From Nitrosopumilus sp. (lineage in GTDB: Archaea; Thermoproteota; Nitrososphaeria; Nitrososphaerales; Nitrosopumilaceae), in contig OY759726.1 of the NCBI GenBank assembly GCA_963662625.1, positions 1 through 64,000 of the forward strand: a DNA stretch of 64,000 bases, given 5' to 3'. The notes beneath the pieces were generated by a model that made no database searches, was not told the DNA's origin, and saw nothing but the letters and a program-made list of their open reading frames with translations. The first letter of the stretch is position 1. The number at the start of each line of letters is the position of its first letter. A program made the translations under genes and the position numbers. Positions 18,996 through 56,107 of this stretch are shown in pieces.

Positions 18996-21900
18996 CTACG
19001 GGGCGGGCCCCAGGCCGATTTCCATGGGGTGCGTGGAGCCCGGCTCGGGGGCGATCGCCAGGAACGTCCCGCGCACGCCGGTGGCGGGGTCGGGCGGGGA
19101 CGTGGCCGCGTAGCCGGCGGGCACCGCCACCTGCGCGAGCCAGTCGGCGGGGACCAGGCCCGCCATGGTCGCGGTGCCGCCGGGCCCGGTCACCGCCGCC
19201 TCGAGCTCCGCGGTCGTGTACGTGTAGGTGTGGACGGTCACCCCCGGGAACGGCGGCTCCCCGGGATCCCGTTCCCCGTCGGAGTCGTCGTCGCGGTACG
19301 CGGAGACCTCGAGCGTCACGGCCTCTTCCGGGGGCACCTGGCGGAACCCGACGTCCCACGCCGAGGTGGCGCCCAGCTCCGGGCCCAGGTACGCGTAAGG
19401 GCTGCCGGTGGTGAGGGTGTGGTCGAACGGGAAGTAGTGCGTCTGGACCAGGGTGGCGTGCGGGTGCGGGGTGACGGCGCCAAACGCGTATATCCCGTCG
19501 GGGCCGGTCACGGCGGTCCGGGCCTCCCCGGTGGACACGTCCACCGCGACCATCGCATAGCCCGGGATCGCCCCCTCCCCCGAGTCCCGGACGCCGTTCC
19601 CGTTGGCATCTGAGAACACCGTCCCGCGTATGGACGCGTCGGCCCTTGACACCGACACGGAGGAGCCGTCGGTGGCGGCGGTCGCGCGCGGCCCGGCGTT
19701 GCCCGCGGCGTCCTCGAAGTCGATCCCAAACTCCACGGGGCCCGCGGGATCCGTGCCGTCGACGGCCCTAGCGGCGCTCCACGAGCCGCCTCCCGCGCTC
19801 ACCGGCTCGGAGTGGTTCCCGTTGATGGCCACCGACACGCCCGCTATCCCCTCGGACGCCGTGAACTCCAGGGTGACCGCGTCTCCCGCCCGGGCGGTTC
19901 CCGGGACGGCGCCTGACGATGCCACCGAGACCGCGGTCAGCGAGGGGGCCTGGCCGTCGCCCACCGGGACGGTGAGCGGTCCCGCGACGGCGTTCCCGTC
20001 GCCGTCCACGATTCCCGTCCCCACGTACATCGCCCCGGCCGCGTCCGGCGGTGCAGGCGGGCCCGCAAACCCAAGCGTGACGGTATCGGTGCCGGATCCG
20101 GAGATTCCCGTGAACTTCCTGACCGCGGCCTCGCCGGACATAGTGATGTCGACAAAGTCGCCCAGCGCGGCGGCGACTGGCTTTGAGAACTCCACGGTGG
20201 CCTGGTTGGGGCCGGTGACGGCGGCCGAGGAGATCGCGGGCCACGCGTACTCCCCCGTGCCGGCGACCACCCGCCCCGTGGCCCAGGAATGCAGGGCGTC
20301 AGAGTACCCGAACGTGCCGTCCCCGTCGAACGTCACGGAGTACGGCGCCCCCCTGGAAAGCAGGCCGCTGGCAAACTGCTTGCCGCCAGACGGGTCGCCG
20401 GCGACGGACACGGCCGAGTTTCCGGCGTTGACCCAGGTCACCGTGTCCCCGGGCGAGACTTCCAGCGTTTCCGGGAAGAAGCAGGGGTCGCAGCCCGGGT
20501 CGGCGTTGTCCAGCGCCAGTATGTCGGAGCCGGCAAGCATGGAGACGTCGACCCTGCCCGTCCCGTCCCGGTCGGACTTTGCGTGGCGGGACTCCACCGT
20601 GGACTCCAGCAGGGCCTGGATCTCGCCTGCCGTGGCGCCGGGGTGCTTTTCCATGGCCAGCGCGGCGGCGCCGGCGGCGTGCGGGGCGGCCGCCGACGTG
20701 CCGCAGTACGCGTCGTATGCGTAGGCCGTGGTGCTGACGCAGGTGGGCGCCGTGACGTCGGGCTTGGCCCTGCCGTCCAGCGTGGGGCCTTGGGAGCTGT
20801 AGGGCTCCAGGGCGTCCGTCCTCCAGTACTTTGCCCCCACGCTCAGGGAGCCGGGCGAGTCCGCGGGGATGACGACGCTGGAGCGCGCCACCGCGTACTC
20901 GCTCAGGTCGTGGCGGATCGTGAACAGCTGAAAGTCCGCGTCCCCGGCGGCCGAGCGCCCGTCTATCGACACGTGGACGGTGGCGTCGCTCCGGAAGGCG
21001 CGCTCGACCTTCTCGAACGGGCGGTACCCCGGCTGGGCGTTGGCCGAGAGATCCAGCAGGTTCGAGTCCCCGTCTGCCAGGCGGAGGTCGTAGTCCTGCG
21101 AGGGGGAGCCCCACCAGCTGAGGATCACCGTCAGCGTTTCCCCGGCGCCCACGTCGATGTCGATCGACTCGTCGTGGCCCCGGAAGTTGTGCCAGCCGTC
21201 GCCGTCGGGATCCGAGAACCGGCCCTGCCAGTGCTTGTCCGCGGAGTTTCCCGCGGAATTGACCCACAGTATCCCGCTTTCCCTCGCCTCGCCCACCTTT
21301 TGGGATATCACGCTCGTGCCGTCTGCGGGTCCCGGGCTGTTGAACCACGCAAGGGACATTGAGACTATGTCGATGTCTCCCCGGGAGATGATGTGGTCGA
21401 CCAGGTTCAGAAACTCGATCCTGGTGCCAAAGTTGTAAAGGTACAGCTCGACGTCCGGGGCGACGTCCACTATGACCTCGGCCGAGGCCGTGCCGTGGCG
21501 GCTGTTGCCGCCCGCGATGCCAGAAGAGGAGTCAAAGGACGCGTGCCCGGCGACGTTCCCCGCGATCTCCGGGTTGTGGATGTCAAATCCGGTGTCGATC
21601 ACCGCCACCTTGACCCCCTTGCCGGTGTGCCCCGCAGAGTTGGCGGCGTCGGAGCCCATCACCCCGGCGCCCTCGGTCACCGTCGTGCCGCTGGAAAGCC
21701 AGACGCTCGCGCGCGTCGCGTCGAAGCCCGACGCCCCGGCGGCCGCCGTCCCGTATCCCTGGCCCGCGGGCCCGCCCGCGTGGGCCGGCAGGATCACCGG
21801 GGCCGGCTTGGCCGGGAGCGCGACGAGCCTGACGTTCTCGTCTGCCGCCACGGCCCCCAGGCTCCCCACGGGGGCCGCCGCCTGCACCAGCTCCCCGTAC

Positions 21901-22178
21901 TGCGTCTCCACCGCCATCCCCAGGCCGCCCGGGACGGGCGCCCCCTCCCGGGCCATCTCCAGCGCCACCCGGACCGTCCGGCCGTCGGCGCCCTCCCGGG
22001 CGGCCGCGTTCTGCGCGGGCCGGTCTCCCGCCGCCGACCCGTAGAGGGCCGCGAGCCGGGAGTCCATGTTGTGGAACTTTTTTTCGGCGCCCGCCGCGGG
22101 GGGCGGGTCCTGGGCGTGGGCCGCCGGGGCCAGCGCCGCGAAGGCCAGGACCAGCGAGAACGCGAGCAGGCGATTCAC
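18996..22178 (-). CDS. Secreted S8 subtilisin-like protease with cupredoxin-like, Ig-like and SdrD-B-like domains
   Basis: Signal peptide; triad VIDTG / HGTASA / GTSAAAPH; VFSDANGNGVRDSGE repeats; GTG start 22178 about 25 bp after TTTATAA. Confidence 0.9.
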   Translation of the reverse strand: MNRLLAFSLVLAFAALAPAAHAQDPPPAAGAEKKFHNMDSRLAALYGSAAGDRPAQNAAAREGADGRTVRVALEMAREGAPVPGGLGMAVETQYGELVQAAAPVGSLGAVAADENVRLVALPAKPAPVILPAHAGGPAGQGYGTAAAGASGFDATRASVWLSSGTTVTEGAGVMGSDAANSAGHTGKGVKVAVIDTGFDIHNPEIAGNVAGHASFDSSSGIAGGNSRHGTASAEVIVDVAPDVELYLYNFGTRIEFLNLVDHIISRGDIDIVSMSLAWFNSPGPADGTSVISQKVGEARESGILWVNSAGNSADKHWQGRFSDPDGDGWHNFRGHDESIDIDVGAGETLTVILSWWGSPSQDYDLRLADGDSNLLDLSANAQPGYRPFEKVERAFRSDATVHVSIDGRSAAGDADFQLFTIRHDLSEYAVARSSVVIPADSPGSLSVGAKYWRTDALEPYSSQGPTLDGRAKPDVTAPTCVSTTAYAYDAYCGTSAAAPHAAGAAALAMEKHPGATAGEIQALLESTVESRHAKSDRDGTGRVDVSMLAGSDILALDNADPGCDPCFFPETLEVSPGDTVTWVNAGNSAVSVAGDPSGGKQFASGLLSRGAPYSVTFDGDGTFGYSDALHSWATGRVVAGTGEYAWPAISSAAVTGPNQATVEFSKPVAAALGDFVDITMSGEAAVRKFTGISGSGTDTVTLGFAGPPAPPDAAGAMYVGTGIVDGDGNAVAGPLTVPVGDGQAPSLTAVSVASSGAVPGTARAGDAVTLEFTASEGIAGVSVAINGNHSEPVSAGGGSWSAARAVDGTDPAGPVEFGIDFEDAAGNAGPRATAATDGSSVSVSRADASIRGTVFSDANGNGVRDSGEGAIPGYAMVAVDVSTGEARTAVTGPDGIYAFGAVTPHPHATLVQTHYFPFDHTLTTGSPYAYLGPELGATSAWDVGFRQVPPEEAVTLEVSAYRDDDSDGERDPGEPPFPGVTVHTYTYTTAELEAAVTGPGGTATMAGLVPADWLAQVAVPAGYAATSPPDPATGVRGTFLAIAPEPGSTHPMEIGLGPAP

Positions 22179-22595
22179 GCGACGTGTTCCTTCCGCGCGC
22201 GTTATAAATCGAAGGGGCGCGTGCAACATTCCCAGAAGTGCCTCAAGAGCCCGCCGCAGTCACGCGTGTTTGGTTGCGGGGCGCCGCCGGGGCCCCCGCC
22301 TCCGGCGCATCCGCAGGGCACTCCTGGGAAGACTGCATGCTGACGCCGGCCATAAACCTCAACCACGTAACCCGGGCACGGATCGAGAAGCCGCTGGATG
22401 CATTACAGCAACTACTGGGCGGTTGACACAGGTGCGGTCTCGGGGTATTTCAGAACGCGCCCGATCAGGCTTGACGCCTGCAAGTTCCCGTACCGGCCCA
22501 TCTAAGTGGAAATTTTCAATACTCGTCATCACAGAGTTAAAGTTTACGTAACTCTTACTCATTCTTTTTATTAACTCAATTTTGATAAACAGGGC

Positions 22596-30130: not shown

Positions 30131-30137
30131 CCCATAC

Positions 30138-32459
30138 TCAATTGTACGGAAAGTCGGTCCGCATCGGATCAAGAGGACGGTAGCCGACTATTTTAGGCTG
30201 TACCGATCACGGAAGGCCATGACAGGAAGACTTACTGAGGGGTCCCGGAAGTACCTGGTCAGACAGCGAGAGAAGGGCGTGCCGTCATCCCAAGTGGCGC
30301 GGGATCTGGGAATCACCGCCAGGCACGTGCGGAGGCTGTGGGCGAGGTTCCTGGAGACCGGAACGACGGCGGCGGGGATGGGCAGGCCGCGCACCTGCAT
30401 GACCGCCGCCATGATACGGCTGGTCACCGGCGCCCACGGGAGGCGCCCTGCGGGCGCGGTGCGCACCGCGAGGCGCCCCAGGAGGTAGTCTGTTGCACAA
30501 CTGCCAGAAATTGCCGAGTCTAAACAGTTGAACCCCCGGCCCAACCATGTCAAACCGAAAAGGCCTTGGATCACGGCCGCGCACCGTCCCCGTTGGCTGC
30601 GACCGACAACGAGAAATACGTCAGGCGCGGGAGGGGCCTGGCTGTGTCGTATGACCCCGGCTGGGAGGACGACCTGAGGGAGGCCAACGCCGGCAAGGAG
30701 GGCGCCCCGTTCAGGTACGCCGGGGCGCTGGTCATGGCCGCCGCCGCGGTGAGGACCTCGCTCGGGGTCCAGTACAGGCAGCTGTCCGGGCTCCTCGCGG
30801 GGATGCTGGGGGGGCACGGCGCGCCGCACTACTCGGTGCTGGCCAGGAGGATGGCGCGCCTCGACGTGGACATCGGCGGGGGAGTCGTCCGCGTCTCCGG
30901 CGGCGGCCAGCCCATGACCCTGCTGGCCGACGCCACGGGCCTGAAGCAGTGCAACCGGGGCGAGCGGGTACGGAAGAAGCGGGAGGCGAGGCGCGGGTTC
31001 GCCAGGCTGCACCTGCTGGCCGACGCCGACACGAAGAAGATGCCCGCGGCGGTGGTGACCGACGACAGGACGGGCGACTCCCCCATGCTGAAGGAGCTCC
31101 TGGGAACCGTGGCGGGGCCGCGTGGCGGGAAGCCGGACGGGAAGCCGGCGGGGAAGCAGGACAGGCGCATGGCGCTGATCCGCGGGAAGGCAGCCGCGGC
31201 GGGGGATCCCCTGCCGCGCGTGGGCTCGCCCCCGCCCAACCTCCTCGCGAGCGGCGTGGCGCCGCTCGCGCTGCAGTGCGGCCAGCCGCCCGGCTCCCAC
31301 GGGGCGCGCCTGATCGCCGACGGGGCGTACGCGTCGCGGGACAACATGCGGAGGTGCCGCGACATGGGCGTGGGGCCTATCATCCCGGTCAAGGTGGCGT
31401 CCACCGCCAGGGGCAAGGGCGCCGGCGGCGCGTGGGGCGAGGCGGTGCGGGACCAGCTGGGGGGCGGCCCGGAGGCGCGCGTCGACAGGATGGGCACGAG
31501 GGAGAGGGAGGAGAACGTCCGGTACCGGGAGGCCAGGAAGGGGTACGGCAGGAGGTGGCTGATCGAGATAATCATATCGGCGTTCAAGAGGATGTTCGGG
31601 GACCACGCGCGCTCGCGCAGGTGGGAGAACATCGTGCAGGAGGTAAGGCTCAGGGTGGCCCAGTACAACCGGTGGGCGGGGGAGGCGGGGGCGTAGGGAC
31701 TCCAAGCGGCACGGCCTGGCCACGGCCCGGGGATCGTGCCGAGTTGTGCAACAGACTACCAGGAGGGACCATTATATAAGCTACTGCTCCGCATGCCGGA
31801 TATTGAAGAAGGCCGGGGCGGTGGCCGCGTCTGCCGCAAAATCGAGGAGGCGCAAGTGGGTGCGCCACGGGCGCAAATGCCCGGACGCCATGTGGCACGT
31901 CGACTGGCACGGGACGAAGGACCCCCGGTTCAGGGGCCTCCAGCTGGTCGCGTACCTGGACGACGCCTCGCGGTGCGCGGTGGCCGCGCGCGTGTTCACG
32001 CAGGCCACGTCGGAGAACGCCGTGCTGGCGCTCAGGGACGCGATCGGGCGGTTCGGCACGCCGGCCACCGTGCTCTCCGACAACGGCCCGTGCTTCGTGG
32101 GCCGGAACGGCCGCAGGAAGGCCCCTCCCCGGCCGTGGAAGCCCACCGCGTCCGGGGCGGAGCTGCTGGGCCTCGGGATCGAGCTCATAAACTCCAGGCC
32201 GCACCACCCCCAGACCAACGGGAAGGCCGGGAGGTTCTTCCGGAGCGCGGGGGACGGGACATGGCACTACGAGAGCATGTCCGAGTACATGGCGTACTAC
32301 AACGAGGACAGGCCGCGCTTCTCCCTGGACATCGACAACTACCAGACCCCGCTGAAGGCCTTCCATGACAAGGAGGCCGTGGCAGCGATCAGGGAGAGCA
32401 ACCCGGGATGGATGGAGGCGGAGGCGGATGACTAGCGGACCGACTTTTCATATACTACA
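30138..32459 (+). mobile_element. IS481-family element interrupted by IS5 copy 2
   Basis: WHVDW, YLDDASR, SDNG, HPQTNGK motifs; IR core aaagtcggtccgc; perfect 15-bp TSD acaagttacccatac (30123-30137, 32460-32474). Confidence 0.9.
30486..31758 (+). mobile_element. IS5-family element copy 2 (transposase 30566-31696)
   Basis: Perfect TIRs; 8-bp TSD ccaggagg (30478-30485, 31759-31766). Confidence 0.92.
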
Positions 32460-32510
32460 ACAAGTTACCCATACAGCAAGTCTTTTATTTCACTGCCCAT
32501 TTTTTCCATT

Positions 32511-33332
32511 ATGGATTTATTGCCAGATCATACTACCCACATCCCGTTATCAGAAATAACCATGGGAAAGAGCCAGGCTCGGCAAAGGAATACCAAGGTG
32601 GATGAAGATGACGACTTGGTTCATAGCATACGTAAGGATGGCCTACACAACCCAATCGTTGTAAAAAAAACTGACGAACACCAATTTGAATTGCTGAGCG
32701 GCCAACGAAGGTTTAGAGTGCATGAAATGCTTCAGAAGCCCACAATCAAGGCATATGTGGTGGAAAAGGATATTGACGAATTTGAGGCAAAAAAAATCTC
32801 GTTTGTGGAAAATGCCGCACGCAGGGATATGAAACATGCAGACTATGTTGACACCATACAGATTTTCATGAACAAGTATAACAACACCAGGACTGTTGCA
32901 GAAGAGCTCGGCATGAGCGTCAACACTGTGAGAAAATACCTGACCATCGGGAGGCTGCCAGAGGCAGTTCAGGCTCAAGTCCAAAATAAAAAAATCACCG
33001 CGGACAACGCGATTAAAGCGCTGGACGCTCTTGGCGGTGACGAAACCAATGTAGATGAAGCGGTCTTACTTGAGACTGCGCAAGAGATGCAAAAACTTGC
33101 ACCGCAATCGAGGAAGAAGATGATCAAGATAAAACAAAATGAACCAAACTTAAGTGCGGCCGATGCTGCCAACAAAGCAAAGAAAAGCACCCAACTTAAC
33201 AGGTTTACTATTGAAGTCCCCTATGAGCAATTGACACGAATAGACAGATTCAAACAAATAAAGGAAATTAGCAAAACCGAAGAGGCAGCAATTGAGCTGA
33301 TTGATCGGGGTCTTGATTCTGCAGAAGCATAA
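32511..33332 (+). CDS. ParB/Spo0J-family protein
   Basis: SIRKDGLHNPIVV...LSGQRRFR (GxRR), ENAARRD, HTH TRTVAEELGMSVNTVRKYL. Confidence 0.9.
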   Translation: MDLLPDHTTHIPLSEITMGKSQARQRNTKVDEDDDLVHSIRKDGLHNPIVVKKTDEHQFELLSGQRRFRVHEMLQKPTIKAYVVEKDIDEFEAKKISFVENAARRDMKHADYVDTIQIFMNKYNNTRTVAEELGMSVNTVRKYLTIGRLPEAVQAQVQNKKITADNAIKALDALGGDETNVDEAVLLETAQEMQKLAPQSRKKMIKIKQNEPNLSAADAANKAKKSTQLNRFTIEVPYEQLTRIDRFKQIKEISKTEEAAIELIDRGLDSAEA

Positions 33333-34090
33333 TGTCCATTCTACAAAGCCCGAAGCGCTTAGCTAAACTACTTGCCAGTATCAACGTATCATATTCTGAA
33401 AGACCAATATCTCCTATACAGGTTGCAGAAGAAATTGGCGAGCTATTAAAAGAGTTAAACGGTGACAAAAACGAACTCAAAAAACGGCTACCGCTATCTC
33501 AGGGCATCATTGATGGGTTTCTGCGTTTGTTAAACCTGCCGGGGAAAATCCAGGACATTATAGTGTGGGGGGAATCCAATAAGAATACGGGCGAGATTTC
33601 TTTTAGTGCCGCAAGCTATATTTGCAAATTAGAAAACAGCGAGGATGTCTTGAAGCTTGTGGGGGCAATGCATGATCTTGACAGGCCCATCACAAAAGAA
33701 GAGATCAAGGACATAATCAGCCTTAAAAAACACAATTCAGGAAAGCCAATCGAAAACTGCATCAATGAAGTGCTTGGCGTGACGAGGCCCACAGTGATCC
33801 AGCATTTTCTTTTTATCAGCGGCATCGACCCTTCAATTGTGAATGAACTAAAGGCAGAATCGCAAAAAAATAACATGAAATTGGATGATTGTGGAATTAA
33901 TGTTCTTTCCAAACTATTTCCCTCGGGTTCATTAAAAGGGGTCAAAATACACGATGACTATTTACAGCTGCATCTGTCCGAAGACGGAAGAAATTTCATG
34001 CGAAGGTATGGCGATTCCAACAACATATCTCGCAAGGATATAATCAACCACATGTTTGAGAAGGGAGCCACTGGAAATGAACAACAATGA
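33332..34090 (+). CDS. ParB-like HTH protein lacking the N-terminal ParB domain
   Basis: RPISPIQVAEEI...ELKKRLPLSQGII..FLRLLNLPGKIQ...ISFSAA mirrors the ParB central HTH region; 1-bp overlap with previous stop. Confidence 0.65.
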   Translation: MSILQSPKRLAKLLASINVSYSERPISPIQVAEEIGELLKELNGDKNELKKRLPLSQGIIDGFLRLLNLPGKIQDIIVWGESNKNTGEISFSAASYICKLENSEDVLKLVGAMHDLDRPITKEEIKDIISLKKHNSGKPIENCINEVLGVTRPTVIQHFLFISGIDPSIVNELKAESQKNNMKLDDCGINVLSKLFPSGSLKGVKIHDDYLQLHLSEDGRNFMRRYGDSNNISRKDIINHMFEKGATGNEQQ

Positions 34091-35126
34091 ACTTTTTTCT
34101 AAAGTCAAAATTACGGAACGCGGTGCAGTTTGTTTAGGAAAATCCCTTGTATGTGACGGGTTTGAACCCGACTACCATGCTGCGGCGTTTACTCATATCC
34201 ACTCTGATCATGTTTCTGACAGTTTCGAAACATGTATGCACCAATACAATGTATACGCCTCAAAAATCACCGGAGACCTGCTGGAGGCCATCACTGAGGA
34301 TACCTATTCTGGAAGAACCCAGTTTAAGCGAATCGATTATGGCGCCCCACAATTGATAAAATTTAATGATCATGGAGATTACTTGGAGCTTTTGGAATCC
34401 AAGCACATGCTGGGCTCAAGCCAGGTATTGCTGCATACCCATGATCAGCTGAAATTGCTTTATTCAGGTGATATCTCTCCAGATGATCATCCTCCCAAAT
34501 GCGATGTCTTAGTTATTGATTCTACTCACGGAGATCCCAGATTTGACAAAATCATCGATAGCGATAGCCTTGAGAGGCGGTTGTTGGACATAGTAGTAGA
34601 ATCAATCGATACCAAAAAACCTGTCTGCATACATGCTCACAGGGGGCAGTTACAAGACATAATGCATATTCTGTCTAACGATTCAAGGATTCTGCCGGAA
34701 GTTAAATTTCTAACCTCAAGCACCGATTTACAGATTGCCGAGGTTTATTGCCGTAACGGCGTTGAAATCAAGAGTTTGATAGATTTGCAATCTTATGAGG
34801 GGGAAACCATAACCAGCAACGGCTACCCATGGGTCGAATTTAGGCCAACTCTTCAGTTTACAAGACCAGAAGATCGAGGCCAAATGACTGGCATTCATGT
34901 ATGCGGTGGTTTTGGCAATGCTACCATAAGGGCCGATGGCAACAAGCACTGGATTGCCAGTGATAGCCACGCGGAGTTTTCTGATTTGTTGCGCTACGTC
35001 AGAGAGGCGGATCCCCAGGTAGTAGTCGTAGACAACCGCAGATCATCTTTAGGAAAAACGCTTGCCGAAAAAATCAACGAGATCGGCTACGAATCTAAGG
35101 CCATGCCCGTATTAGAAAATGACTAA
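34077..35126 (+). CDS. Metallo-beta-lactamase / beta-CASP nuclease
   Basis: THIHSDH, HMLGS, YSGD, IDSTHG and SHAEF motifs. Confidence 0.88.
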   Translation: MNNNELFSKVKITERGAVCLGKSLVCDGFEPDYHAAAFTHIHSDHVSDSFETCMHQYNVYASKITGDLLEAITEDTYSGRTQFKRIDYGAPQLIKFNDHGDYLELLESKHMLGSSQVLLHTHDQLKLLYSGDISPDDHPPKCDVLVIDSTHGDPRFDKIIDSDSLERRLLDIVVESIDTKKPVCIHAHRGQLQDIMHILSNDSRILPEVKFLTSSTDLQIAEVYCRNGVEIKSLIDLQSYEGETITSNGYPWVEFRPTLQFTRPEDRGQMTGIHVCGGFGNATIRADGNKHWIASDSHAEFSDLLRYVREADPQVVVVDNRRSSLGKTLAEKINEIGYESKAMPVLEND

Positions 35127-36480
35127 ATCAAGACAGCATTTTAAACAGTATTTGAAGGCGTTTATCCAACGGGCCCTGTCTGCATGCAAGGAGGAATACC
35201 TGAAAAATAAGCAGAAATATGAGGGCAGAGTCCCCATGGCAGATTTTTCGGGCCGAACACTGTCAATAACGCACAGGGATACGATAGATTACAAAAAACT
35301 GAGTCTCGCGTTAAAGACCTCTATTAAAAAATACCCGGAAGCCAATTCGCTTTTTAAGATCATAAGAAATATCCTAAAGTCCAAGATCAATCAAACCGAA
35401 TCAAAAAACACCAATAAGACGGATGTCGATTACAATGGATTGGATTCCCAGTTATTTTATTGCATATTCCATTATTTAAAAAATTACGGGTTTGAATTCG
35501 ATGAGTCCAACTTTAATGAAACCTTTTCAGCTTTTGATCAATATCTGCACCTGGGTTTTGACAATTACTGCTATCTTACTCCCTTGTATAATTTTGATGG
35601 TGATTTTGAGCACTGCCAGATATCATCCTGCTTGTGGATACAAAAAATCCCAATTAGTTTTTACAGTAAAATCATAAACTTGAATCTGGGCATCCGTGAG
35701 ATTCCGTCTTATCAAAGACAGCTCAAATACGCACTATTTTGTAGTGTTGGGACTAAGACTTCCCCCAGTCCCCCATCTACCGCCCTTAAAAATTTTGAAA
35801 ATACTCTCAATGCACTGAAACTATTTGAACGGGGAGATCCGAGCTTCGGAGATGTGTTTGGAATTCTCTCCAAAGATTGGCCTGGTTACAGTTTGAGCAT
35901 TATAGAGCGCGGTCACGAAAGATCACCTTACTCCTCCAGAAAATACCGCCTAGACGAGAAAAAAGCAAAAGATTTTGCGCATTTTCACGAGAAGTTATTC
36001 GGCAAAATATCCAAGCTAGACAGGAAATCTGGCTTCTTAGAATCTTCAATTCGTCGTTTTGGAATGGCATTTCATCATAGGGAGCCGGTAGATAAGATCG
36101 TGGACCATGTTATCTGCTTGGAGTCTTTGCTGGTTCCAAACGTGGGGGATGCCACCCTCAAACTATCCCATAGAATGTCTTCCCTGTTAGGTGACAACGA
36201 CGCCGAACGTGTATGGATATGGAAGTTTGCAAAGGAGGCCTATAAATTCAGAAGTGGGTACCTACACAAGTCCAAAGAGCGGCCAATTAAAATCGACTCT
36301 CATAATTTAGAATTAGACGAGGTATCTGCTAAATTGGAATGTCTTTCTCAGCTTGCCATCATGCGAGTAATCCAACTATTGCACAAATATGATTCCCAAG
36401 ATCAAATTGTTGATGAACTTGATCAATCGATGTATGACCGCGGTAAATTGAAAAAACTTCAAAGGGTTTGGAAACACTAA
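35119..36480 (+). CDS. ApeA-like HEPN domain protein
   Basis: VICLESLL...LSHRMSSLL...AYKFRSGYLH with an intact RxxxxH motif. Confidence 0.8.
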   Translation: MTKSRQHFKQYLKAFIQRALSACKEEYLKNKQKYEGRVPMADFSGRTLSITHRDTIDYKKLSLALKTSIKKYPEANSLFKIIRNILKSKINQTESKNTNKTDVDYNGLDSQLFYCIFHYLKNYGFEFDESNFNETFSAFDQYLHLGFDNYCYLTPLYNFDGDFEHCQISSCLWIQKIPISFYSKIINLNLGIREIPSYQRQLKYALFCSVGTKTSPSPPSTALKNFENTLNALKLFERGDPSFGDVFGILSKDWPGYSLSIIERGHERSPYSSRKYRLDEKKAKDFAHFHEKLFGKISKLDRKSGFLESSIRRFGMAFHHREPVDKIVDHVICLESLLVPNVGDATLKLSHRMSSLLGDNDAERVWIWKFAKEAYKFRSGYLHKSKERPIKIDSHNLELDEVSAKLECLSQLAIMRVIQLLHKYDSQDQIVDELDQSMYDRGKLKKLQRVWKH

Positions 36481-36578
36481 AGTGGCGATGATTGTGAATT
36501 TCACCGTAGATGCGGCGATGCAGAAACCTGCAGGTGCCCAGCTGATCGTGTACGCCCCGAGTTACTCTGAGACACACT

Positions 36579-37754
36579 TCAGGAGCCGTTAATTTTTGAG
36601 ATCTGTTTTACGGCTTCCGCTATCTTCCGGGCTGAAAACTCCACCCCGTGATCCGGCTGGTCGCTAAAGCGCCCTATCCCAACACGGATTGACGAGAAAG
36701 CCCGGTCCTCGCCGAACCCCAATGCCATGATCACGTGTGATGGCTCCACGCTTTGGGTGGTGCACGCTGATCCTGTAGATATCGCAACGTGGTCCGAGAC
36801 CGAGTTGATTATGGCCTTGCCTTCCACGCCTGGAAAGTAGAGGTTGAGGTTGCCTGGCAGCCGATCGTCCTTGGGGCCATTGAGTGCCACATCCGCCTGT
36901 CCACGTATGAGATCAAACATCGTGGAAGACAGGCTCCTGAGTATCGTGGCCTCCGAGTGCATCTCCTTGTGTGCGATTTCTGCCGCTTTGCCAAACCCGA
37001 CTATCGCCGGCACGTTTAGGGTTCCAGAGCGCATTCCGTGCTCCTGTCCGCCCCCGTAGACCAGGGGCGATACCCGGACTCGTGGGTGCATGCCCCGAAC
37101 ATATAGCGCGCCTATTCCCTTGGGACCGTACATCTTGTGCGCCGAAAACGACATCAGGTCGATGTTCATGTCTTCGGTGCTGACCGGTATGTGGCCTACT
37201 GCCTGCGCCGCGTCGGTGTGGAACAGTACCCCCTTCTCGTGGGCCATCTTTCCTATGCTTGCGACGTCCTGTATCGTGCCGATCTCGTTGTTTGCGGCCA
37301 TTATGGATATCAGAACCGTCCTGTCCGTTACGGCATCCTCGAGTTCGCCCATGTCGACGAAGCCATGCTCGTCTACCGGCACGTACGTCACTTTTTTCCC
37401 CATGGCCTCCATATGCCTTGCCACGCTTAGCACGGATTCGTGCTCGGTAACGCATGTGATCATGTGATCGCCGGCATCCTCGTACGCATTCATGACGCCG
37501 GATATTGCGAGGTTGTTCGACTCTGTGGCCCCGCTTGTAAAGACAATCTCGTTTTCTTTTGCGCCGATTGTGGCTGCAATGTCTTTTCTTGAAGACGAGA
37601 CTGCCTCGGCGGCCTTGCTGCCGTACACATGATCCGTGCTTGATGCGTTTCCAAAGGAATCCGCAAAGTAGGGCATCATGGCATCAAGCACTCTGGCATC
37701 GAGCGGCGTCGTGGCGTTGTTGTCAAGGTACACGATGTCTTCTAGTTGAGGCAA
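36579..37754 (-). CDS. dndA: Cysteine desulfurase DndA/IscS
   Basis: YLDNNATT, HTDAAQA, SAHKMYGPKG, STGSAC; last gene of the dnd operon. Confidence 0.9.
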   Translation of the reverse strand: MPQLEDIVYLDNNATTPLDARVLDAMMPYFADSFGNASSTDHVYGSKAAEAVSSSRKDIAATIGAKENEIVFTSGATESNNLAISGVMNAYEDAGDHMITCVTEHESVLSVARHMEAMGKKVTYVPVDEHGFVDMGELEDAVTDRTVLISIMAANNEIGTIQDVASIGKMAHEKGVLFHTDAAQAVGHIPVSTEDMNIDLMSFSAHKMYGPKGIGALYVRGMHPRVRVSPLVYGGGQEHGMRSGTLNVPAIVGFGKAAEIAHKEMHSEATILRSLSSTMFDLIRGQADVALNGPKDDRLPGNLNLYFPGVEGKAIINSVSDHVAISTGSACTTQSVEPSHVIMALGFGEDRAFSSIRVGIGRFSDQPDHGVEFSARKIAEAVKQISKINGS

Positions 37755-38125
37755 TTCTCCCGCTCCTGTAGTATGACGCGCTCAAAGTCGGACATGTCGT
37801 GTATGCGGGCAAACAGCGCTATGGTTCCGCGGTTAAAATGCGCACGCACCATCCTGTTCATCCACATGTTGGGGTTGAACCCGTCCCTCCTCAGTCGCTG
37901 GATCATCAGCGCCATGAACATGTCCTCGTAGTCTCCGAACAGCACGGATGGGTGTATCTCCGATCCCTTCTCGTCGAACTCGTCCGGGTTTGGGGGGGAG
38001 GGGTCGTTTAGCGACATGCATATTGCGAACCTCCCCATTATGTTGGGGGCCAGGCCTGTCCTCGACTTTAGCTGCGCAAGCAGGTTCTGCGAGCGCGAAC
38101 TCATCCTAAGCCTAGCGAACCGCAA
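37742..38125 (-). CDS. dndE: DNA phosphorothioation protein DndE
   Basis: LKSRTGLAPNIMGRFAICMSL...RAHFNRG; position after dndD; TTG start inferred. Confidence 0.88.
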   Translation of the reverse strand: MRFARLRMSSRSQNLLAQLKSRTGLAPNIMGRFAICMSLNDPSPPNPDEFDEKGSEIHPSVLFGDYEDMFMALMIQRLRRDGFNPNMWMNRMVRAHFNRGTIALFARIHDMSDFERVILQERENCLN

Positions 38126-40157
38126 CAACCCGGCGTCCCCCCTCGTTCCAGAAGTAGCTATCGTGCTTCTTCGTAGATCCCTTGCTATCAACATATTCCA
38201 AGGCATATGACCGCATCAGGTGGGGCTTCAGTTTTTTGTAGTCCCGGTATTCAATCTCCTTGTCGGTGGAGAAGATTAAGATCTGGTGCGATGCTTTGGG
38301 AAGGAACTTGGCCATGATGTTTGTTCTGTGCTTCCCGTCAAGCCGTGCCAGCGGGGTATCTATGACAAACGGCAGTGGCCTGCCGGAGGTCTTTGCCAGT
38401 GACCACAGGACAGACATTGCAAACATCTGCTTCTCGCCCTCGGACAGGATATCTTTTTGTAGCGTGGAGCCGTTTTCCCTAAACAAAGTTATCTCAAACG
38501 TGTCAGGGTTGACCACGACCTTCTCGACCAGGTTTTTCTTATGCATGAGCAGTTTGAGATAGCCCAGCACATAGCCCTCCAAGAGCCGAATTTTTTTGTG
38601 TTTTAGTTTCTCGGCAAACTCCTCCAAGGCGCTCTGGACCTTCTGGGTTAGTTCTACACGGATTTCAGCCTTTTCGTTATCGTATATCTCAGATGTCAGG
38701 GCTTGTATCTTGTTGTCAAGATGCCGCTTCAGGGACGTCTCGCTCGCTATTTTTTCCTTCATGTGTGAGAACCGTACTGACAGTTCGCCCTTTTGCGACT
38801 GGGCATTTCCAATATCTGAAACCAGCGAGCTGATCTCGTCATCACGGGGGGCGCTTTCGATGGACACCTCCAGCCTGTTCATCTCCTCTGCCACCTTGAC
38901 GAGGGTTTTCGTGTGTTTTCTGAGTGCCGAGATGGCATCGGTGTTGGCTTCGTCAATTATGGACATCATCCTGGATGCCTGGGAGGCCGAAAAATCAAAC
39001 ACGGGCTTGGGGACCGCTTTGGCGCGGGTCTTTTCCTTCCGGAGCATGGAGGACATGGCGGATACGGCCGCATCAATGTGACGCCTCTCGAGCCCGGACT
39101 CTTTCCAGAATTGCGCGGTCTTGATCTTGGAAGCGATATGGCTTAGCTTGGAGTCTACCAGATTGTCGCCGGCCAGTTGCTGCTGTATTGATTCATCCTC
39201 CTTGATCTGTTCAGATAACCTCACGAGGTCGTCTGGGATCATTGCAAAGGGCAGGGTTCCAGAGCAGAGCTCTGCCACGTCTTGTCGGACATGCTCATAC
39301 ACTGCCTTTTTTGCCGCAAGCTTCCCCCTGGCAGCATCACGTCCACTGGCAAACGTGCCCCCGATGCCAGAAATCTTGCCTTCCAGGACCTCGATCTCCT
39401 GATCTAGCCGATCCATGTCGTTTTGCAGGGCGGCGGACTTTTCTTCCAGGTTGGCAATCGTGCGCATTGCATCGGCTTTCTCCTTTTCGTATCTGTCGCA
39501 GTCCTGCCTCAGGTGGTCGCTTTTCTTGGTGAGGTTCCTCGCAAGGTTGATCCTCAGGTCGGTGCGGAGCTGCTCTACAAGATCTATGCCCAGAAGGGAT
39601 TTGAAGGATTCCTTGATCGCTATGTCCTCGGTTCCTTCCTTGGCAATCTCCACTATCTTTTCGCCGTCGAAAAAGAACAGGTTTGCTATCCCCTTTGGAA
39701 TCAAGCCCTCTACGAACGACTGCCAGTGGGACTTTTCTATGTCTTCCAATGGGGCGAACTCGGCATCATCCGACGTGCGTTTTTTGACGTCAAGCGTCTC
39801 CTCTATGGAGCCCTCTTCTTTTTTCCAGAAGCGCTCCACCCGGTATTCGGCGACCTTACCGTCGTGAAAGAACTTGAATTGCACGGTGATCGACGCGTGG
39901 TCGGCAGGGGTTAGGCTCTTGGCGTACCGGTGAATCTTGCGTGCGAGGAACTTTCTGTATTCTTTTTTGGACACCCGTCTGCCCAGGGCAGATATGCCGT
40001 AAAGGCATATGGTCATGGATTCAAAGAGGGTGGTCTTCCCGGCCCCGTTTGTTCCGCCAATCAGTATAATGGGCTTTTGGGCGGTACATGTAAAGTCAAA
40101 CTCGTTTTTCCCCCTATATACGCCGTAATCCTGCAACACGATGCGCGTGACTATCAA
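38112..40157 (-). CDS. dndD: DNA phosphorothioation SMC-like ATPase DndD
   Basis: GGTNGAGKTT, FFFDGEKI, LSEGEKQ, VIDTPLARLD, FSTDKEI. Confidence 0.95.
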   Translation of the reverse strand: MIVTRIVLQDYGVYRGKNEFDFTCTAQKPIILIGGTNGAGKTTLFESMTICLYGISALGRRVSKKEYRKFLARKIHRYAKSLTPADHASITVQFKFFHDGKVAEYRVERFWKKEEGSIEETLDVKKRTSDDAEFAPLEDIEKSHWQSFVEGLIPKGIANLFFFDGEKIVEIAKEGTEDIAIKESFKSLLGIDLVEQLRTDLRINLARNLTKKSDHLRQDCDRYEKEKADAMRTIANLEEKSAALQNDMDRLDQEIEVLEGKISGIGGTFASGRDAARGKLAAKKAVYEHVRQDVAELCSGTLPFAMIPDDLVRLSEQIKEDESIQQQLAGDNLVDSKLSHIASKIKTAQFWKESGLERRHIDAAVSAMSSMLRKEKTRAKAVPKPVFDFSASQASRMMSIIDEANTDAISALRKHTKTLVKVAEEMNRLEVSIESAPRDDEISSLVSDIGNAQSQKGELSVRFSHMKEKIASETSLKRHLDNKIQALTSEIYDNEKAEIRVELTQKVQSALEEFAEKLKHKKIRLLEGYVLGYLKLLMHKKNLVEKVVVNPDTFEITLFRENGSTLQKDILSEGEKQMFAMSVLWSLAKTSGRPLPFVIDTPLARLDGKHRTNIMAKFLPKASHQILIFSTDKEIEYRDYKKLKPHLMRSYALEYVDSKGSTKKHDSYFWNEGGRRVVAVR

Positions 40158-41659
40158 CGGTTGTTCACCAGGCTGCGTTTTGAGTGATTTCGTGATTCCA
40201 AATCACGGATGATCTCTGGCATGTCATCCCTCCATTCCTCTGCGAGTATCTTGTTGATCTTGGGGTATATCTTGGAATGCTGCACCATGCCTTGTGATTC
40301 GTGTTCTGCATTGAGCAGTTTAGACACCAAAAGGGCAGGAACGTCGTTTTGTTGGCAAATTTCCTCCAGCAGGTCCTGCTCCACCACGCCGAATACTCCA
40401 AGATCCTCCTGGGGCGGGACGAGTTTTTCGCCCATGATCTTTTCGTAGATCTGGTATGCCGTATTCTTCCAGTCGCCCCTCTCCATCCTCCATATCCTTT
40501 GGATCTCATGGATCTCATCCTCCAAGATTAGCATCATGTACGGGTCTGGCCCGTCCTGCCTGATTTTTTTCTGGGCTTTTAGTAGTTTCTTTAGAAATTC
40601 CTTGCAAAAGTCCATCGTGTATGGGCCAGGAACCAGTCTGTTGTGCGGATCGTCGTAGTCAATGCCCTCTGGCTCTTTTACGGATTCGAGCATCTTCTTG
40701 TCAAACCCCTTCCTGCGTCCGTCGTCGATGAGCTTCATCTGCCCGGTCCTGCGCTTGAACGAGCGCACCTCCTTCCTCTTGGCAGGCTCTTGCGTGGCCT
40801 TGAGATCCTCGCGCAGTTCAAGCAGGGGCTCCATCCAGCCCTCACCGTTTTCGATCGTGTTGCGCAGGGACGAGTCATCGTTGACCACGGTGCACGTCCA
40901 GCATCCGAACCTGCTGTTTCCACAGGACGGAGTGCTGGCATCCACCACCAGTGGGCATTCCGAGGCGTTTGCGTTCTGGTACATTGCCAGCAGATCCCTG
41001 TTGTTGGAGCCCCACGGGTTTTTTTTCTGCAGCAGGTAATTCCACACATCCTTGGACGTGAAATCACGCAGGGGCGTATACACATAGGTCTGGGCAAACT
41101 TCGAGTGCCGCGAGAGCAGGCTTCCCTCAATCTCATAGAGGTTCATTAGCTGTTGTCGGGAACCGCTCTCGTCCTTCCTGGTTCCCAGAACCACAATTGC
41201 CTCGCCATATTCCGATACCCTGTCCTGTATGAACCTGTCCGCATTACGTATCTTGAGCCTCTCCGTGCACCACCTGAACAGGTTGCTTGGGGCCGGGAAT
41301 CCCTTTCCAAGGAGGCACACCCAGAAAGTATCCTCCATTAGAGGACGGACCAGGTTTGTTGATATCGGAAGGCGTGATTTTTTGGATGCTTTTTCCATCA
41401 TGTCGAGTGTGCTGGTGATTTGCTCCACAACCTTGGGAGACTCTACCAGCGTGTCAGACGATATTATGAAGATCCGCTTGTGTAGTTTTTTTGCGGGTAG
41501 TTCGGACAACGCCTCCCAGATAAGCTGGACCATGCATGTGGAGTCCTTGCCTCCGCTGAATCCGAGAATCCACGGTCTGTTGTCTGAAAGATATACCTGC
41601 CGGATCTCCTCATAGATGTCCCTCACCTTGCGGGTTTTAAATATAGATTCTGTGGGCAT
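40154..41659 (-). CDS. dndC: DNA phosphorothioation sulfurtransferase DndC
   Basis: WILGFSGGKDST, FRWCTERLKI, ECPLVVD...SCGNSRFGCWTCTVV. Confidence 0.95.
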   Translation of the reverse strand: MPTESIFKTRKVRDIYEEIRQVYLSDNRPWILGFSGGKDSTCMVQLIWEALSELPAKKLHKRIFIISSDTLVESPKVVEQITSTLDMMEKASKKSRLPISTNLVRPLMEDTFWVCLLGKGFPAPSNLFRWCTERLKIRNADRFIQDRVSEYGEAIVVLGTRKDESGSRQQLMNLYEIEGSLLSRHSKFAQTYVYTPLRDFTSKDVWNYLLQKKNPWGSNNRDLLAMYQNANASECPLVVDASTPSCGNSRFGCWTCTVVNDDSSLRNTIENGEGWMEPLLELREDLKATQEPAKRKEVRSFKRRTGQMKLIDDGRRKGFDKKMLESVKEPEGIDYDDPHNRLVPGPYTMDFCKEFLKKLLKAQKKIRQDGPDPYMMLILEDEIHEIQRIWRMERGDWKNTAYQIYEKIMGEKLVPPQEDLGVFGVVEQDLLEEICQQNDVPALLVSKLLNAEHESQGMVQHSKIYPKINKILAEEWRDDMPEIIRDLESRNHSKRSLVNNR

Positions 41660-42745
41660 TCAGGCGTCCATCCCTATGGTTTCAGGCAATCCAAGGCCGA
41701 CTAATATTTCATTGGCTGCCCTCTTGATCCCCAGCCGGTTCTTGATCAGTTTGCCGTCCATGACTACCTTGTCCTGCCAGATCGGGCTGTTTCGCATCCA
41801 GTCGATCTTCTGTAGCCCTCTGATCCGATCTTTCCAGTCAGATCGCTGGACCAGCACATGGCCCACCAGCCCTAGCGCGTTGAGGATGTTTGTGTGTGCA
41901 TGGACGTAGTCCTTCCTCAGGTCATAAGGAGTGAGCTTTTTCTGCACCAGAAGGTTCCACTCGGGTATATTTGATGCCACAGCGTCCCAGTACTCCACTG
42001 CTAGTTTTTGTTTTTCAGCAGAGATCGATTTTGTTGTGGGTTTGAGGCTTAAAAGATACCTTGTCGCATCTGCCACCCCGTTCAAAGTCACAAACTTGGT
42101 TGAGCGGTTGGAGATGTTTGTGCGCTCCATCTCCGTACGCCCGCAAAACACCTCAACGTCATTGACCAGATTGACGATGAATCTTGCAAACGTGTCCCGG
42201 TGGTCATACAGCAGTCCCAGTGACTTGGTTGGCTTGACCGCATGTTTGTTGAGGTCAGCAAACATCTGCTGGCTTCGCTCCAGCCCCCTGTCCTCAAACA
42301 CGACTACAGCCATGCGTTCCATGCCAATGCGTTCGTCGTCCTCGTATGCAGACCGGATTGCGGCGCACCGGTGCTGTCCATCATTGACTAGGATTCTTGC
42401 ACTGCTTGGTATCCTGATCTTTCCCACCTTGCTCTCCGAATTGTTACGTGGAGTAGGCTCAAAGTCTATCTTTTGGTCTACAGAGACCGTAATCGCTGAA
42501 AAGACATAGTTGTCAAGGTTGTCCAGTATGTAAGATGCTATCCTGGGCACGCGTGATTCCCTAATCTTGCGCTGGGCCCTCAAGTGTGCAGGAATTCCGG
42601 AATCCTTGTCAAACTTGAAGTGGTTGCTTATGGTGGCAAAATCAGACATCATGATATAAAACACGCGTCCAGCCTGAATGCCCTTTGTGGCGTCGAACGT
42701 CAGGGAGCTGGCAGCCTCGGCCTCGACATACTGTTGCCTGCTCAT
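41660..42745 (-). CDS. dndB: DndB regulator (DGQHR domain)
   Basis: GIQAGR, RAQRK, NDGQHR, QQMFADLN, LYDHRD. Confidence 0.95.
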   Translation of the reverse strand: MSRQQYVEAEAASSLTFDATKGIQAGRVFYIMMSDFATISNHFKFDKDSGIPAHLRAQRKIRESRVPRIASYILDNLDNYVFSAITVSVDQKIDFEPTPRNNSESKVGKIRIPSSARILVNDGQHRCAAIRSAYEDDERIGMERMAVVVFEDRGLERSQQMFADLNKHAVKPTKSLGLLYDHRDTFARFIVNLVNDVEVFCGRTEMERTNISNRSTKFVTLNGVADATRYLLSLKPTTKSISAEKQKLAVEYWDAVASNIPEWNLLVQKKLTPYDLRKDYVHAHTNILNALGLVGHVLVQRSDWKDRIRGLQKIDWMRNSPIWQDKVVMDGKLIKNRLGIKRAANEILVGLGLPETIGMDA

Positions 42746-42759
42746 TCATGACGCACCTG

Positions 42760-42990
42760 GAAGCATGTTGTAATTTTAATTTGCACGCGCGGTACTCGTG
42801 TTTTCCACTTTTGAGAGGGTTTGTGGCTAGGTGTTGACCTAGACGTTAATTCGTTTTAGCTAACATATGCAATTGATGTAAAGCGCAAAAAGAAAATTTC
42901 AAATTAAAATAAGGGCGGGATTGAAATCTCCGTTACAAATACTGTTAACATATTACTAATATAGTAAACACATAAAATAATTGTTCATTT
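42760..42990 (-). promoter_or_regulatory. AT-rich upstream region of the dnd operon with TATA-like element and palindromes
   Basis: ATTAAAATTA about 26-35 bp before dndB; palindromes tgttaaca (42943-42950) and ttacta-ata-tagtaa (42953-42967). Confidence 0.45.
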
Positions 42991-43278
42991 TGGCCGGAAC
43001 TATCTCCGGGTTCATCGTGCCCCATATTGACCCAGTGGGTTCTACGGCGTCACCGCACAGGCGGCTACCTAGATAGTTCGTCACCACCCCATAGTCAGCG
43101 CATTATCTATTCGCTCATTTTGGTCCAGGGGGGATTCTTTTTGCGCATGGTGGCAAGCGTGGATCCGCCATATTGCATGTGTCAGTAGCACGTTGCTAGT
43201 CGATTTCATAATGCGTTGAGTACAGAATACGGGCCCCGCGCCGCGCAGGAAATGATGCGGCACCATAGGCACCGGCGG

Positions 43279-44778: not shown

Positions 44779-44851
44779 GGCAGGCGCCCGATCCGGGGCC
44801 GCGCCATGGGGATTTTATGCTTTCGGGTGGCCGGGCGCGACCCGTCGCCCG

Positions 44852-46148: not shown

Positions 46149-46167
46149 GTCGCCCGAATATCCATAT

Positions 46168-50447: not shown

Positions 50448-50568
50448 CCGCGTTGCCACGCCGGCTGCCCCGCGGTTTTTTCGGACGTGGCCGCGGGTGG
50501 CCTCTTTTCCATGATCCGCTTGGCCCGTCCCGCTTCCCGCGGGCAGCCATCGGACGGCACTGCCTTCC

Positions 50569-56076: not shown

Positions 56077-56107
56077 TAACCCACCCCGGGAGTGGATTAT
56101 CACAAGA

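Follow-up and report, generated by a model that had tools for sequence, protein, structure and literature searches.

In fungi, repeat-induced point mutation (RIP) introduces clustered C>T and G>A transitions into repeated mobile DNA, destroying reading frames, shifting base composition and lowering GC content; it acts in a dinucleotide context, is eukaryotic and is linked to the sexual cycle. In Escherichia coli, very-short-patch (VSP) repair, whose Vsr endonuclease is encoded beside a C5 methyltransferase, restores T:G to C:G and as a side effect causes a context-specific T:A>C:G drift, namely single T>C changes at Dcm-like sites, one step from the methylation site, and depletion of CTAG. ADAR-like hyper-editing leaves clusters of A>G on one strand per tract, with U or A preferred and G disfavoured as the 5' base. 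Here we describe a pattern in which the T and the A of a TNNA tetranucleotide change together to give CNNG. It was noticed in copy 2 of an IS5-like insertion sequence (IS) in the genome of Nitrosopumilus sp. (GCA_963662625.1, contig OY759726.1), a single contig of 1,858,698 bp with 63.4% GC and one full-length match (1456 bits) to the archaeal small-subunit rRNA model. The window, that is, the whole stretch of DNA that was analysed around this element, comprises bases 1-64000 of that contig. The observation is confirmed there, and it holds genome-wide.

With RIP, the pattern shares clustered transitions in repeated mobile DNA, destroyed reading frames and a shifted base composition. The changes are, however, T>C and A>G by outgroup polarity, and their context is a two-fold symmetric tetranucleotide in which both strands are changed together. 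With VSP repair it shares a Vsr gene beside a C5 methyltransferase gene, but the change seen here is double and needs an A at +3, three positions downstream of the T. ADAR-like hyper-editing is not matched: the tract in copy 2 alternates T>C and A>G, and the 5' base at the hot motifs is G or C. As for mutation in mismatch-repair-deficient bacteria, a study that covers them (10.1101/346874) describes A:T>G:C transitions as dominant, and neither MutS nor NucS was found in the present genome; the hot context which that study gives for E. coli is NAC/GTN, and the changes it describes are single. Full-text keyword searches of open-access papers and preprints (paired transitions, VSP-related GC bias, adenine deaminases acting on double-stranded DNA, prokaryotic RIP) found no description of the present pattern.

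Paired substitutions in copy 2 of an IS5-like element

The IS5-like element is present in eight full-length copies and several partial ones (BLAST against the genome), and the alignments stop sharply at both termini, giving conserved ends and multiple dispersed copies. Three full-length copies lie in the window; they and the main sites in copy 2 are as follows.

30486-31759, + strand, IS5-like copy 2, nested within an IS481-like element; the interval 30960-31615 falls inside it
7176-8484, - strand, IS5-like copy 1, with C..G at the positions homologous to 31482/31485 and 31113/31116
44851-46148, - strand, IS5-like copy 3, T..A-rich form with an intact 384-aa transposase
30965-31044, clustered tract in copy 2, with TGGA, TGGA, TGAA and TCAA pairs plus ACT>GCC, or 10 A:T>G:C changes in 80 bp
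31526-31529, TGGA>CGGG pair in copy 2, W-K > R-E, C..G in 7/12 aligned copies
31608-31611, TGCA>CGCG pair in copy 2, V-H > A-R, with the sister copy in the half state C..A

When the three copies are aligned, twelve of the substitutions in copy 2 form six TNNA>CNNG pairs (30965/30968, 30980/30983, 30987/30990, 31002/31005, 31526/31529 and 31608/31611), and an ACT>GCC change adds 31042 (A>G) and 31044 (T>C), all as a reading made from the sequence alone had described. That sequence-only reading had counted 14 substitutions relative to copies 1 and 3, every one of them A:T>G:C and private to copy 2. The count stands, but the direction is not exclusive, as an opposite change, G>A at 30517, sits just beyond the interval 30960-31615 and had been overlooked. 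Privacy holds only among the three copies of the window. Genome-wide, the changes are mostly shared with a copy at 1453346-1454618, which has copy 2's five changes at 30965-31044 as well as those at 30517 and 31608, so that the changes of the tract are inherited and not private. This sister copy retains T..A at 31526/31529, which implies either repeated hits at this site or its conversion; outgroup transposases there have W in 9/10 and K in 10/10 cases. A TGCA at 31009-31012, within the tract, is unaltered. Two further pairs that had been reported between copies 1 and 3 are also present, at 31113/31116 (T..A in copy 3) and 31482/31485 (C..G in copy 1).

All 14 changes in copy 2 are nonsynonymous: W>R and V>A occur three times each, K>E and K>R twice each, and I>V, I>M, L>P and H>R once each. 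The transposase open reading frame (ORF) that carries them, 30566-31696 (376 aa), is still open despite this decay and matches DDE_Tnp_1 (PF01609) at 3.4e-17 and DDE_Tnp_1_5 at 1.5e-09, while the transposase of copy 3 matches PF01609 at 1.3e-21; a match to PF13737 has 1.4e-09. Copy 3 is identical to a copy at 1672929-1674225 in every variable column, and its T..A-rich form is presumably young. Separately, a 12-nt repeat that codes for G-K-P-D/A occurs within the IS5 transposase (31113-31150 and the homologous places), and its number varies among copies through 24- and 12-nt indels that preserve the frame.

We compared the number of pairs in copy 2 with that expected from 200,000 random draws of 14 sites from the 384 A/T sites of the element, which contains 34 TNNA sites. 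No TNNA pair arose in 191,735 draws, one in 8,124, two in 141, and three or more in none, against the six observed. In an alignment of 12 IS5 copies, about 20 sites flip between T..A and C..G as units, and the distributions of the two states among the copies fit no single tree.

Pairing across dispersed repeat families

A self-comparison of the whole genome yielded 940 high-scoring segment pairs (HSPs) of at least 200 bp. Among HSPs of 96-100% identity, neighbouring mismatches are spaced three apart 265 times, as compared to 100 times at spacing 2 and 89 times at spacing 4. In-phase T..A/C..G differences, in which one copy has both A/T bases and the other both G/C bases, make up 197 of the 265. 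We then grouped dispersed repeats of at least 500 bp and at least 85% identity into 19 families. Over the HSP pairs of these families, spacing 3 accounts for 1,287 in-phase T..A/C..G differences and 10 out-of-phase ones (T..G/C..A), numbers that come from copies compared in pairs and do not stand for independent events. Ten of the 19 families show pairs (at least three in-phase differences each), and these include four transposase types (DDE_Tnp_1, rve, IS66 and an HTH_33/HTH_32 type). Pairing is strand-symmetric in the repeats of this genome and, by the random draws above, far beyond chance, and the genome-wide alignment of IS copies shows both an enrichment of 3-bp spacing and an excess of A:T>G:C. 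On these essentials (paired changes, strand symmetry, a direction toward G:C and the insufficiency of repair loss by itself, taken up below) the sequence-only reading is right, and it overstates one-wayness and privacy.

The converted sites are clustered: neighbouring hot sites are both converted 36 times, where 20.3 +/- 2.9 would be expected. No pairs were seen in the non-IS duplications examined, e.g. a 6.9-kb pair at 652423/681569, where the differences are transversion-rich and restricted to variable regions, as for functional paralogues. Comparison of genes with decayed fragments outside the IS families, which comprises four HSPs, the largest being a functional paralogue, gave no pairs at 76 TNNA sites.

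Motif dependence and coupling of the two changes

The frequency with which both ends of a TNNA site are converted depends on its inner bases.

TCGA: 21/132 sites, 15.9%
TCCA/TGGA: 51/428 sites, 11.9%
TAGA/TCTA: 3/54 sites, 5.6%
TCAA/TTGA: 9/195 sites, 4.6%
TGAA/TTCA: 8/207 sites, 3.9%
TACA/TGTA: 7/189 sites, 3.7%
TGCA: 1/194 sites, 0.5%

This hierarchy, with TCGA above its one-mismatch variants and these above the two-mismatch variants, resembles that of an enzyme that prefers TCGA and reads the inner bases in a relaxed manner. The bases flanking converted motifs show no preference.

The two changes are tightly coupled. Pairs outnumber half events by 21 to 1 at TCGA and by 51 to 13 at TCCA/TGGA. 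Counted per strand, T>C is found at 43 of 264 TCGA positions, and 42 of these 43 also have A>G at +3; over TCGA, TCCA and TGGA together, 146 of 160 T>C events are so coupled. At TCGG, T>C occurs at 28/605 sites (4.6%), none of them coupled, which is background; the rates at TCCG (2.8%) and TGGG (5.6%) likewise stand against 13-16% at TSSA (S being G or C). We considered a fast second step, with T>C followed later by A>G, and this is excluded since TSSG sites are at background. Local templating by a quasi-palindrome or a nearby repeat was also considered and rejected, the derived 8-mer being found within 30 nt in 3 of 107 events and within 100 nt in 7 of 107. By orientation, T..A events number 104 and A..T events 21 (about five times rarer), with 20 in same-strand classes. 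Weaker versions exist at other distances: spacing 2 gives 16 events, all TCA/TGA, and spacing 4 gives 25. Altogether, the two changes are concerted and motif-dependent, lead from T..A to C..G, increase with the age of the copy and are clustered in tracts.

Polarity and mutational spectrum

The direction of the paired changes can be read from outgroups. Transposases from other genera (loci L002-L012, 26-49% identity) retain W, I, K, V, Y and N at the codons that encode R, V, E, A, H and D in copy 2 and in decayed copies. Across the 16 pair sites of the IS5 ORF, the residue that the majority of outgroups have at the first codon never corresponds to the C..G state; at 15 of them it corresponds to the T..A state, exactly or as a conservative relative, the remaining site being ambiguous. 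The polarity is the same at four sites where copies with C..G now outnumber those with T..A in this genome. Because the outgroup residues match the T..A state, T..A is ancestral and C..G derived, as had been proposed.

To obtain a general spectrum, changes were polarised by requiring at least two agreeing homologous copies of at least 90% identity; over the 69,234 positions that qualified, 822 changes are private.

Private changes by type: T>C, 191; A>G, 176; G>A, 125; C>T, 116; transversions, 214

A:T>G:C transitions thus affect 367 of 20,419 A/T sites (1.80%) and G:C>A:T transitions 241 of 48,815 G/C sites (0.49%). The signature had been called one-way, but with 241 of the 822 private changes in the opposite direction the bias is about 3.6-fold per site and not absolute; it is nonetheless unusual. 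The spectrum of the repeats implies a calculated equilibrium GC of about 74%, below the 94% found at third codon positions.

Conversion rises with the other divergence of a copy. When loci are ranked by that divergence, converted TNNA sites number 12/520, 5/156, 28/202 and 44/171, i.e. from 2.3% to 25.7%, and the rank correlation between converted fraction and other divergence is 0.66 (Spearman rho, over 43 loci that are not independent).

Related genomes and base composition

The IS copies of five related genomes are without the signal. In G008, G016 and G020 we found neither a peak at spacing 3 nor an in-phase excess (G008 has 263 mismatches with 11 at spacing 3; G016 has 3 at that spacing and G020 has 6), and the T..A/C..G class is not among the commonest classes in any of these. 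The IS copies of two genomes of the same genus have equal or nearly equal numbers of in-phase and out-of-phase differences (9 and 9 in G001, 16 and 14 in G002).

The lineage had also been described as high in GC, and it is indeed an outlier: the GC content at third codon positions (GC3) of its PPDK gene (56006-58759) is 0.94, against 0.17-0.72 in 29 relatives, and relatives with 75-76% PPDK protein identity are at 0.24-0.32. GC3 of the transposase ORF is 0.93. In PPDK (compared over loci L052-L098), codon positions 1 and 2 have GC contents of 0.61 and 0.49, against about 0.50 and 0.36. A codon-pair test for depletion of T..A at synonymous third positions gave odds ratios of 2.8-6.2, which remain above 1 after stratification by GC3 but are in both cases confounded by GC heterogeneity. 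No close strain for a single-copy comparison was found among 201 genomes of the family, where the best DNA identity is 72%, or among metagenome contigs, where the best protein identity is 75%.

Repair, modification and defence genes

Neither MutS nor NucS was detected here, and searches of 10 relatives did not find them either. Simple repair loss had been held insufficient to explain the pairing, and the relatives bear this out, as they too lack detectable MutS and NucS, yet the IS copies of the five relatives described above show no pairs. EndoV was not found here either, and is present in 16 of 41 genomes. Loss of EndoV as a sufficient cause was rejected, as EndoV is also missing from most of the low-GC relatives.

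Two ORFs encode Vsr, at 1510859-1511296 and 1520905-1521519 (PF03852, 1.2e-19 and 2.9e-18). Against TIGR00632, the first, with 103.1 bits, passes the cut-off of 97.85, and the second, with 89.8, falls short of it. The first Vsr adjoins a Type ISP enzyme, and the gene order at 1508816-1511296 is C5 methyltransferase (359 aa), HNH protein, small ORF and Vsr. Searches of 41 genomes detected Vsr in 5, with no hit in G001, G002, G003, G008, G016 or G020. The surroundings form a defence-type island of lower GC3 (1502249-1521519) with a Type ISP restriction-modification enzyme (1663 aa), an IS copy, the C5 methyltransferase, the HNH protein and Vsr; the second Vsr, about 10 kb further on, is fused to a DUF559/MTES_1575-like end.

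The genome also encodes five C5 methyltransferase ORFs and several N6/N4 methyltransferases, and a comparison with solved structures, aimed at methyltransferase specificity, gave only generic matches to HaeIII and HhaI over the catalytic domain. Modification and defence genes crowd the region 150000-228000. Besides a PstI/BsuBI-type endonuclease and the adenine methyltransferase that accompanies it, the region has four ORFs for C5 methyltransferases, one of them split, and encodes HerA-like and TIR-domain proteins. A Holliday-resolvase-like nuclease and a D5-type primase-helicase are there too, together with a second family-B polymerase that shares 41% identity with the one in the window. The region may be an integrated element. 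At 635603-636544, a sequence that matches the N6/N4 methyltransferase family is interrupted by two TAG codons in frame and may be a pseudogene or subject to read-through; TAG codons also occur in such matches of several relatives.

A proposed mechanism and its alternatives

The reading that we favour, tentatively and at somewhat less than an even chance, is a mutational process specific to this lineage in which one event turns both A:T pairs of 5'-T-S-S-A-3' into G:C. Its main targets would be TCGA and TCCA/TGGA, and the changes would build up in situ in IS copies that are free of selection. The paired process would be superposed on a general A:T>G:C-biased spectrum, in a genome where MutS, NucS and EndoV were not found. 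We envisage a two-fold symmetric agent that damages or deaminates both adenines, which face each other across the minor groove at a distance of 3 bp, one on each strand. In each case the opposing thymine might then be mistaken for the incorrect member of a T:G-like mispair, and short-patch repair would insert C in its place. Vsr, with two genes of which one lies beside a C5 methyltransferase gene, is a candidate for the replacement of T. Both base pairs would be fixed on both strands ahead of replication: lesions on opposite strands would otherwise segregate to different daughter duplexes and leave half-sites, and as half-sites are rare, both pairs are likely to have been changed before replication. 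GC-directed patch repair of heteroduplex between IS copies could then spread the C..G states, which would explain homoplasy and the clustering of tracts among copies, and a patch running 3' from the nicked T would explain why coupled T..A events are common and A..T events rare.

For the fixation step there is a described likeness. Human TDG is reported to remove T opposite hypoxanthine, after which C is inserted (PMC4041421). As in the step proposed here, an undamaged T is lost and A:T becomes G:C before replication in a context-dependent manner; as described there, however, TDG is a human glycosylase that acts at single sites in TpG context, whereas the candidate here is the Vsr endonuclease and the sites are paired.

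Several observations weigh against this mechanism. In genome-wide 4-mer counts, TCGA and TCCA have observed/expected ratios of 1.27 and 1.16, i.e. they are not depleted, and the ratio of TCGA to TGCA, at 1.88 in coding DNA, comes to 1.10 in repeats and 0.70 in non-coding DNA, so that a strong genome-wide process is not evident. By consensus there are apparent reverse pairs, CNNG>TNNA (18 private, 47 minority); the outgroup check indicates that some of them, though not demonstrably all, were mis-polarised by majority rule. Nor does Vsr track GC, as the Vsr-positive genomes G022 and G023 have GC3 values of 0.26 and 0.21. A link between Vsr and GC was accordingly tried and dropped: among the four Vsr-positive genomes with PPDK, two are GC-rich (this one and G014) and two GC-poor (G022 and G023). 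G014 is itself uninformative about pairing, 10 of its 11 IS copies falling into near-identical groups. The Vsr genes of the present genome lie in an island of lower GC3 (0.57-0.73) and may be recent arrivals. Finally, no candidate for a symmetric adenine-directed enzyme was found in the genome: the sole deaminase-fold hit is an ordinary-looking dCMP-deaminase-like ORF (46150-46719), a methyltransferase domain of the TaqI type was not identified, and there is one Eco57I-type adenine methyltransferase, which adjoins the PstI/BsuBI-type endonuclease.

The alternative that fares best, though we regard it as unlikely, is that biased gene conversion alone is responsible. C..G would then arise rarely and stepwise, and Vsr-type patches in heteroduplex between IS copies, extending 3' from the nicked T over the second mismatch, would turn T..A into C..G and transmit both sites together; pairing would thus be a feature of transmission and not of mutation. 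The strong homoplasy in IS5, where 31482/31485, 31526/31529 and 31113/31116 fit no single tree, is in keeping with this, as are the grouping of converted sites in tracts (36 versus 20.3), the excess of T..A over A..T (104 to 21) that the direction of patches predicts, the presence of Vsr genes and the restriction of the signal to multi-copy families. A derived 20-mer is moreover found elsewhere in the genome for 15 of 42 private pairs. The other 27, however, have no donor that carries the derived 20-mer, and the 30965/30968 pair is confined to two sister copies. A stepwise origin also predicts many half-sites and hot T>C at TSSG, where we see one half event against 21 pairs at TCGA and a rate of 4.6% at TCGG.

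A repeat- or IS-directed defence, a prokaryotic counterpart of RIP that edits the adenines of both strands at TSSA and so disables transposases, is in our view improbable. In its broader form, which we consider no more probable, symmetric editing of multi-copy or transposing DNA from T-S-S-A to C-S-S-G would both disable IS elements and, through leakage and GC-directed patch repair, drive the 94% GC3 of the lineage. In line with such a defence, 10 of 19 dispersed repeat families with four transposase types are affected, the signature is not seen in the non-IS duplications examined, all 14 changes in copy 2 alter amino acids, and TCGA is undepleted in the rest of the genome; no such prokaryotic process is described in the open-access papers and preprints covered by our keyword searches. 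On the other hand, the non-IS duplicates are functional paralogues under selection and a poor control, the 201 family genomes and the metagenome contigs offer no close strain as a neutral single-copy comparator, and an editing enzyme was not identified in the genome. Young copies without conversions imply that the process is slow.

Double misincorporation in one new strand, with C placed opposite A and then, three bases on, G opposite T by a low-fidelity repair or translesion polymerase or from a pool rich in dCTP/dGTP, likewise has little probability. It has the merit that joint inheritance of the two changes would require both to be on one strand at some point, and a preference for middle bases in the order S-S > S-W > W-W (W being A or T) fits easier extension of mismatches. 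The study of mismatch-repair-deficient bacteria cited above (10.1101/346874) further indicates that raised dCTP leads to more C misinserted opposite A and T, and the A:T>G:C dominance that it describes without mismatch repair would suit a genome where MutS and NucS were not found. Yet misincorporation predicts that T>C at TSSB (B being C, G or T) should be about as frequent as at TSSA, where the observed rates are 4-6% and 13-16%. It leaves unexplained why TGCA is cold (0.5%) despite an S-S middle, other A/T positions in the copy 2 tract are untouched, and relatives likewise without MutS and NucS show no pairs.

We also asked if the pattern is an artefact of sequencing or polishing, in which modified bases at a methylated motif are miscalled as A>G on each strand by a long-read caller. 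One report gives nanopore errors near methylation motifs as mainly A>G/G>A and as exceeding 50% at some sites (10.64898/2026.01.14.699587), another records nanopore-only genomes with thousands of modification-linked mismatches (PMC10687267), and the present genome encodes many DNA methyltransferases. Such errors resemble our pattern in giving A>G-type changes at short motifs on both strands, and differ from it in that they recur wherever the context recurs and are not more numerous in older copies. In this genome, copies of identical local sequence differ among themselves, seven of eight copies that otherwise match the consensus have no conversions at all (with 10-39 TNNA sites each), sister copies inherit derived states, and conversion grows with the other divergence of a copy, which an error would not do.

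Public reads bear on the same question. Four public runs, all from one study and here called X1-X4, contain the region as contigs, X4 being from a different sample. The X1-X3 contig over 30692-31148 has the majority T..A form, which also occurs in other copies; as rare variants are lost in contigs, this is no evidence on copy 2 either way. The X4 contig (30568-31148, with two other letters) has C..G at 30980/30983, 30987/30990, 31002/31005 and 31113/31116 and is changed at 31042/31044, so that it carries five of the derived states. It retains T..A at 30965/30968, an intermediate haplotype that is in no copy of the assembly, and it lends weak independent support to the pattern. Taken together, we find an artefact highly improbable. 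The possibility that the pairs are a chance or codon-periodicity by-product of GC-rich coding sequence is negligible: A/T is concentrated at codon positions 1 and 2, which enriches A/T sites at spacing 3, but none of the 200,000 draws reached even three pairs, in-phase differences exceed out-of-phase ones by 1,287 to 10, and the IS ORFs of relatives are without such an excess. That the pattern is due to either chance or artefact is thus very unlikely.

Prokaryotic mutation is described as generally A:T-biased (PMC2936535), which makes the origin of very GC-rich genomes an open question, and the signature may help to explain how this lineage rose to a GC3 of 0.94. Clean multinucleotide signatures usually imply a single enzyme, and this one could reveal a new mutagenic repair or editing activity. 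The responsible enzyme possibly edits adenines in double-stranded DNA and could supply a mechanism for rapid shifts in GC. In practice, paired changes break the independence that substitution models assume, and they could be taken for sequencing errors and polished out.

Other features of the window

The sequence-only reading had seen the same direction of change in an IS481 end and in a polB fragment. The features concerned are as follows.

30133-30485, + strand, IS481-like (rve) element, left part, interrupted by IS5-like copy 2
31760-32460, + strand, IS481-like element, right part, with an integrase-core ORF at 31746-32435
62313-62625, + strand, IS481-like end fragment, with G/C at 26 sites where the copy at 30138 has A/T
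50560-50756, + strand, decayed polB fragment, 81% identical to 48711-48899 of the intact gene

Over 30135-30416, the 26 sites, all of them transition differences, are A/T in the copy at 30138 and G/C in the copy at 62318, with none in reverse, which agrees with what had been noted; the ancestral state is not established, and across six full-length IS481-like copies the private changes are mixed in direction. Closely spaced differences between 30135-30416 and 62318-62600 are mostly A..T or A..A, not T..A. The polB fragment, compared with 48690-48920, does show mostly A>G and T>C as had been claimed, but no TNNA pair; its sole TCGA became TCGG.

The ORF of the split IS481-like element has an rve domain (3.2e-11). 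Contigs from runs X3 and X4 connect 30478 straight to 31760, which indicates that those samples contain an IS481-like copy into which IS5 has not inserted, be it a copy at a different locus or the empty site itself.

Within the 63% GC genome, the stretch 32000-43000 of the window is low in GC (45-53%, GC3 0.4-0.7), and its best DNA match in the 201 family genomes is 70-72% identical. It is probably acquired DNA that is not yet at host composition. The window also contains tandem repeats of 21 nt (49959-50400) and 75 nt (51958-52332). The 75-nt array lies inside an ORF at 51025-54726 with subtilase, DUF285 and SdrD_B domains, a paralogue of which, 72-86% identical, is found at 18996-22259.

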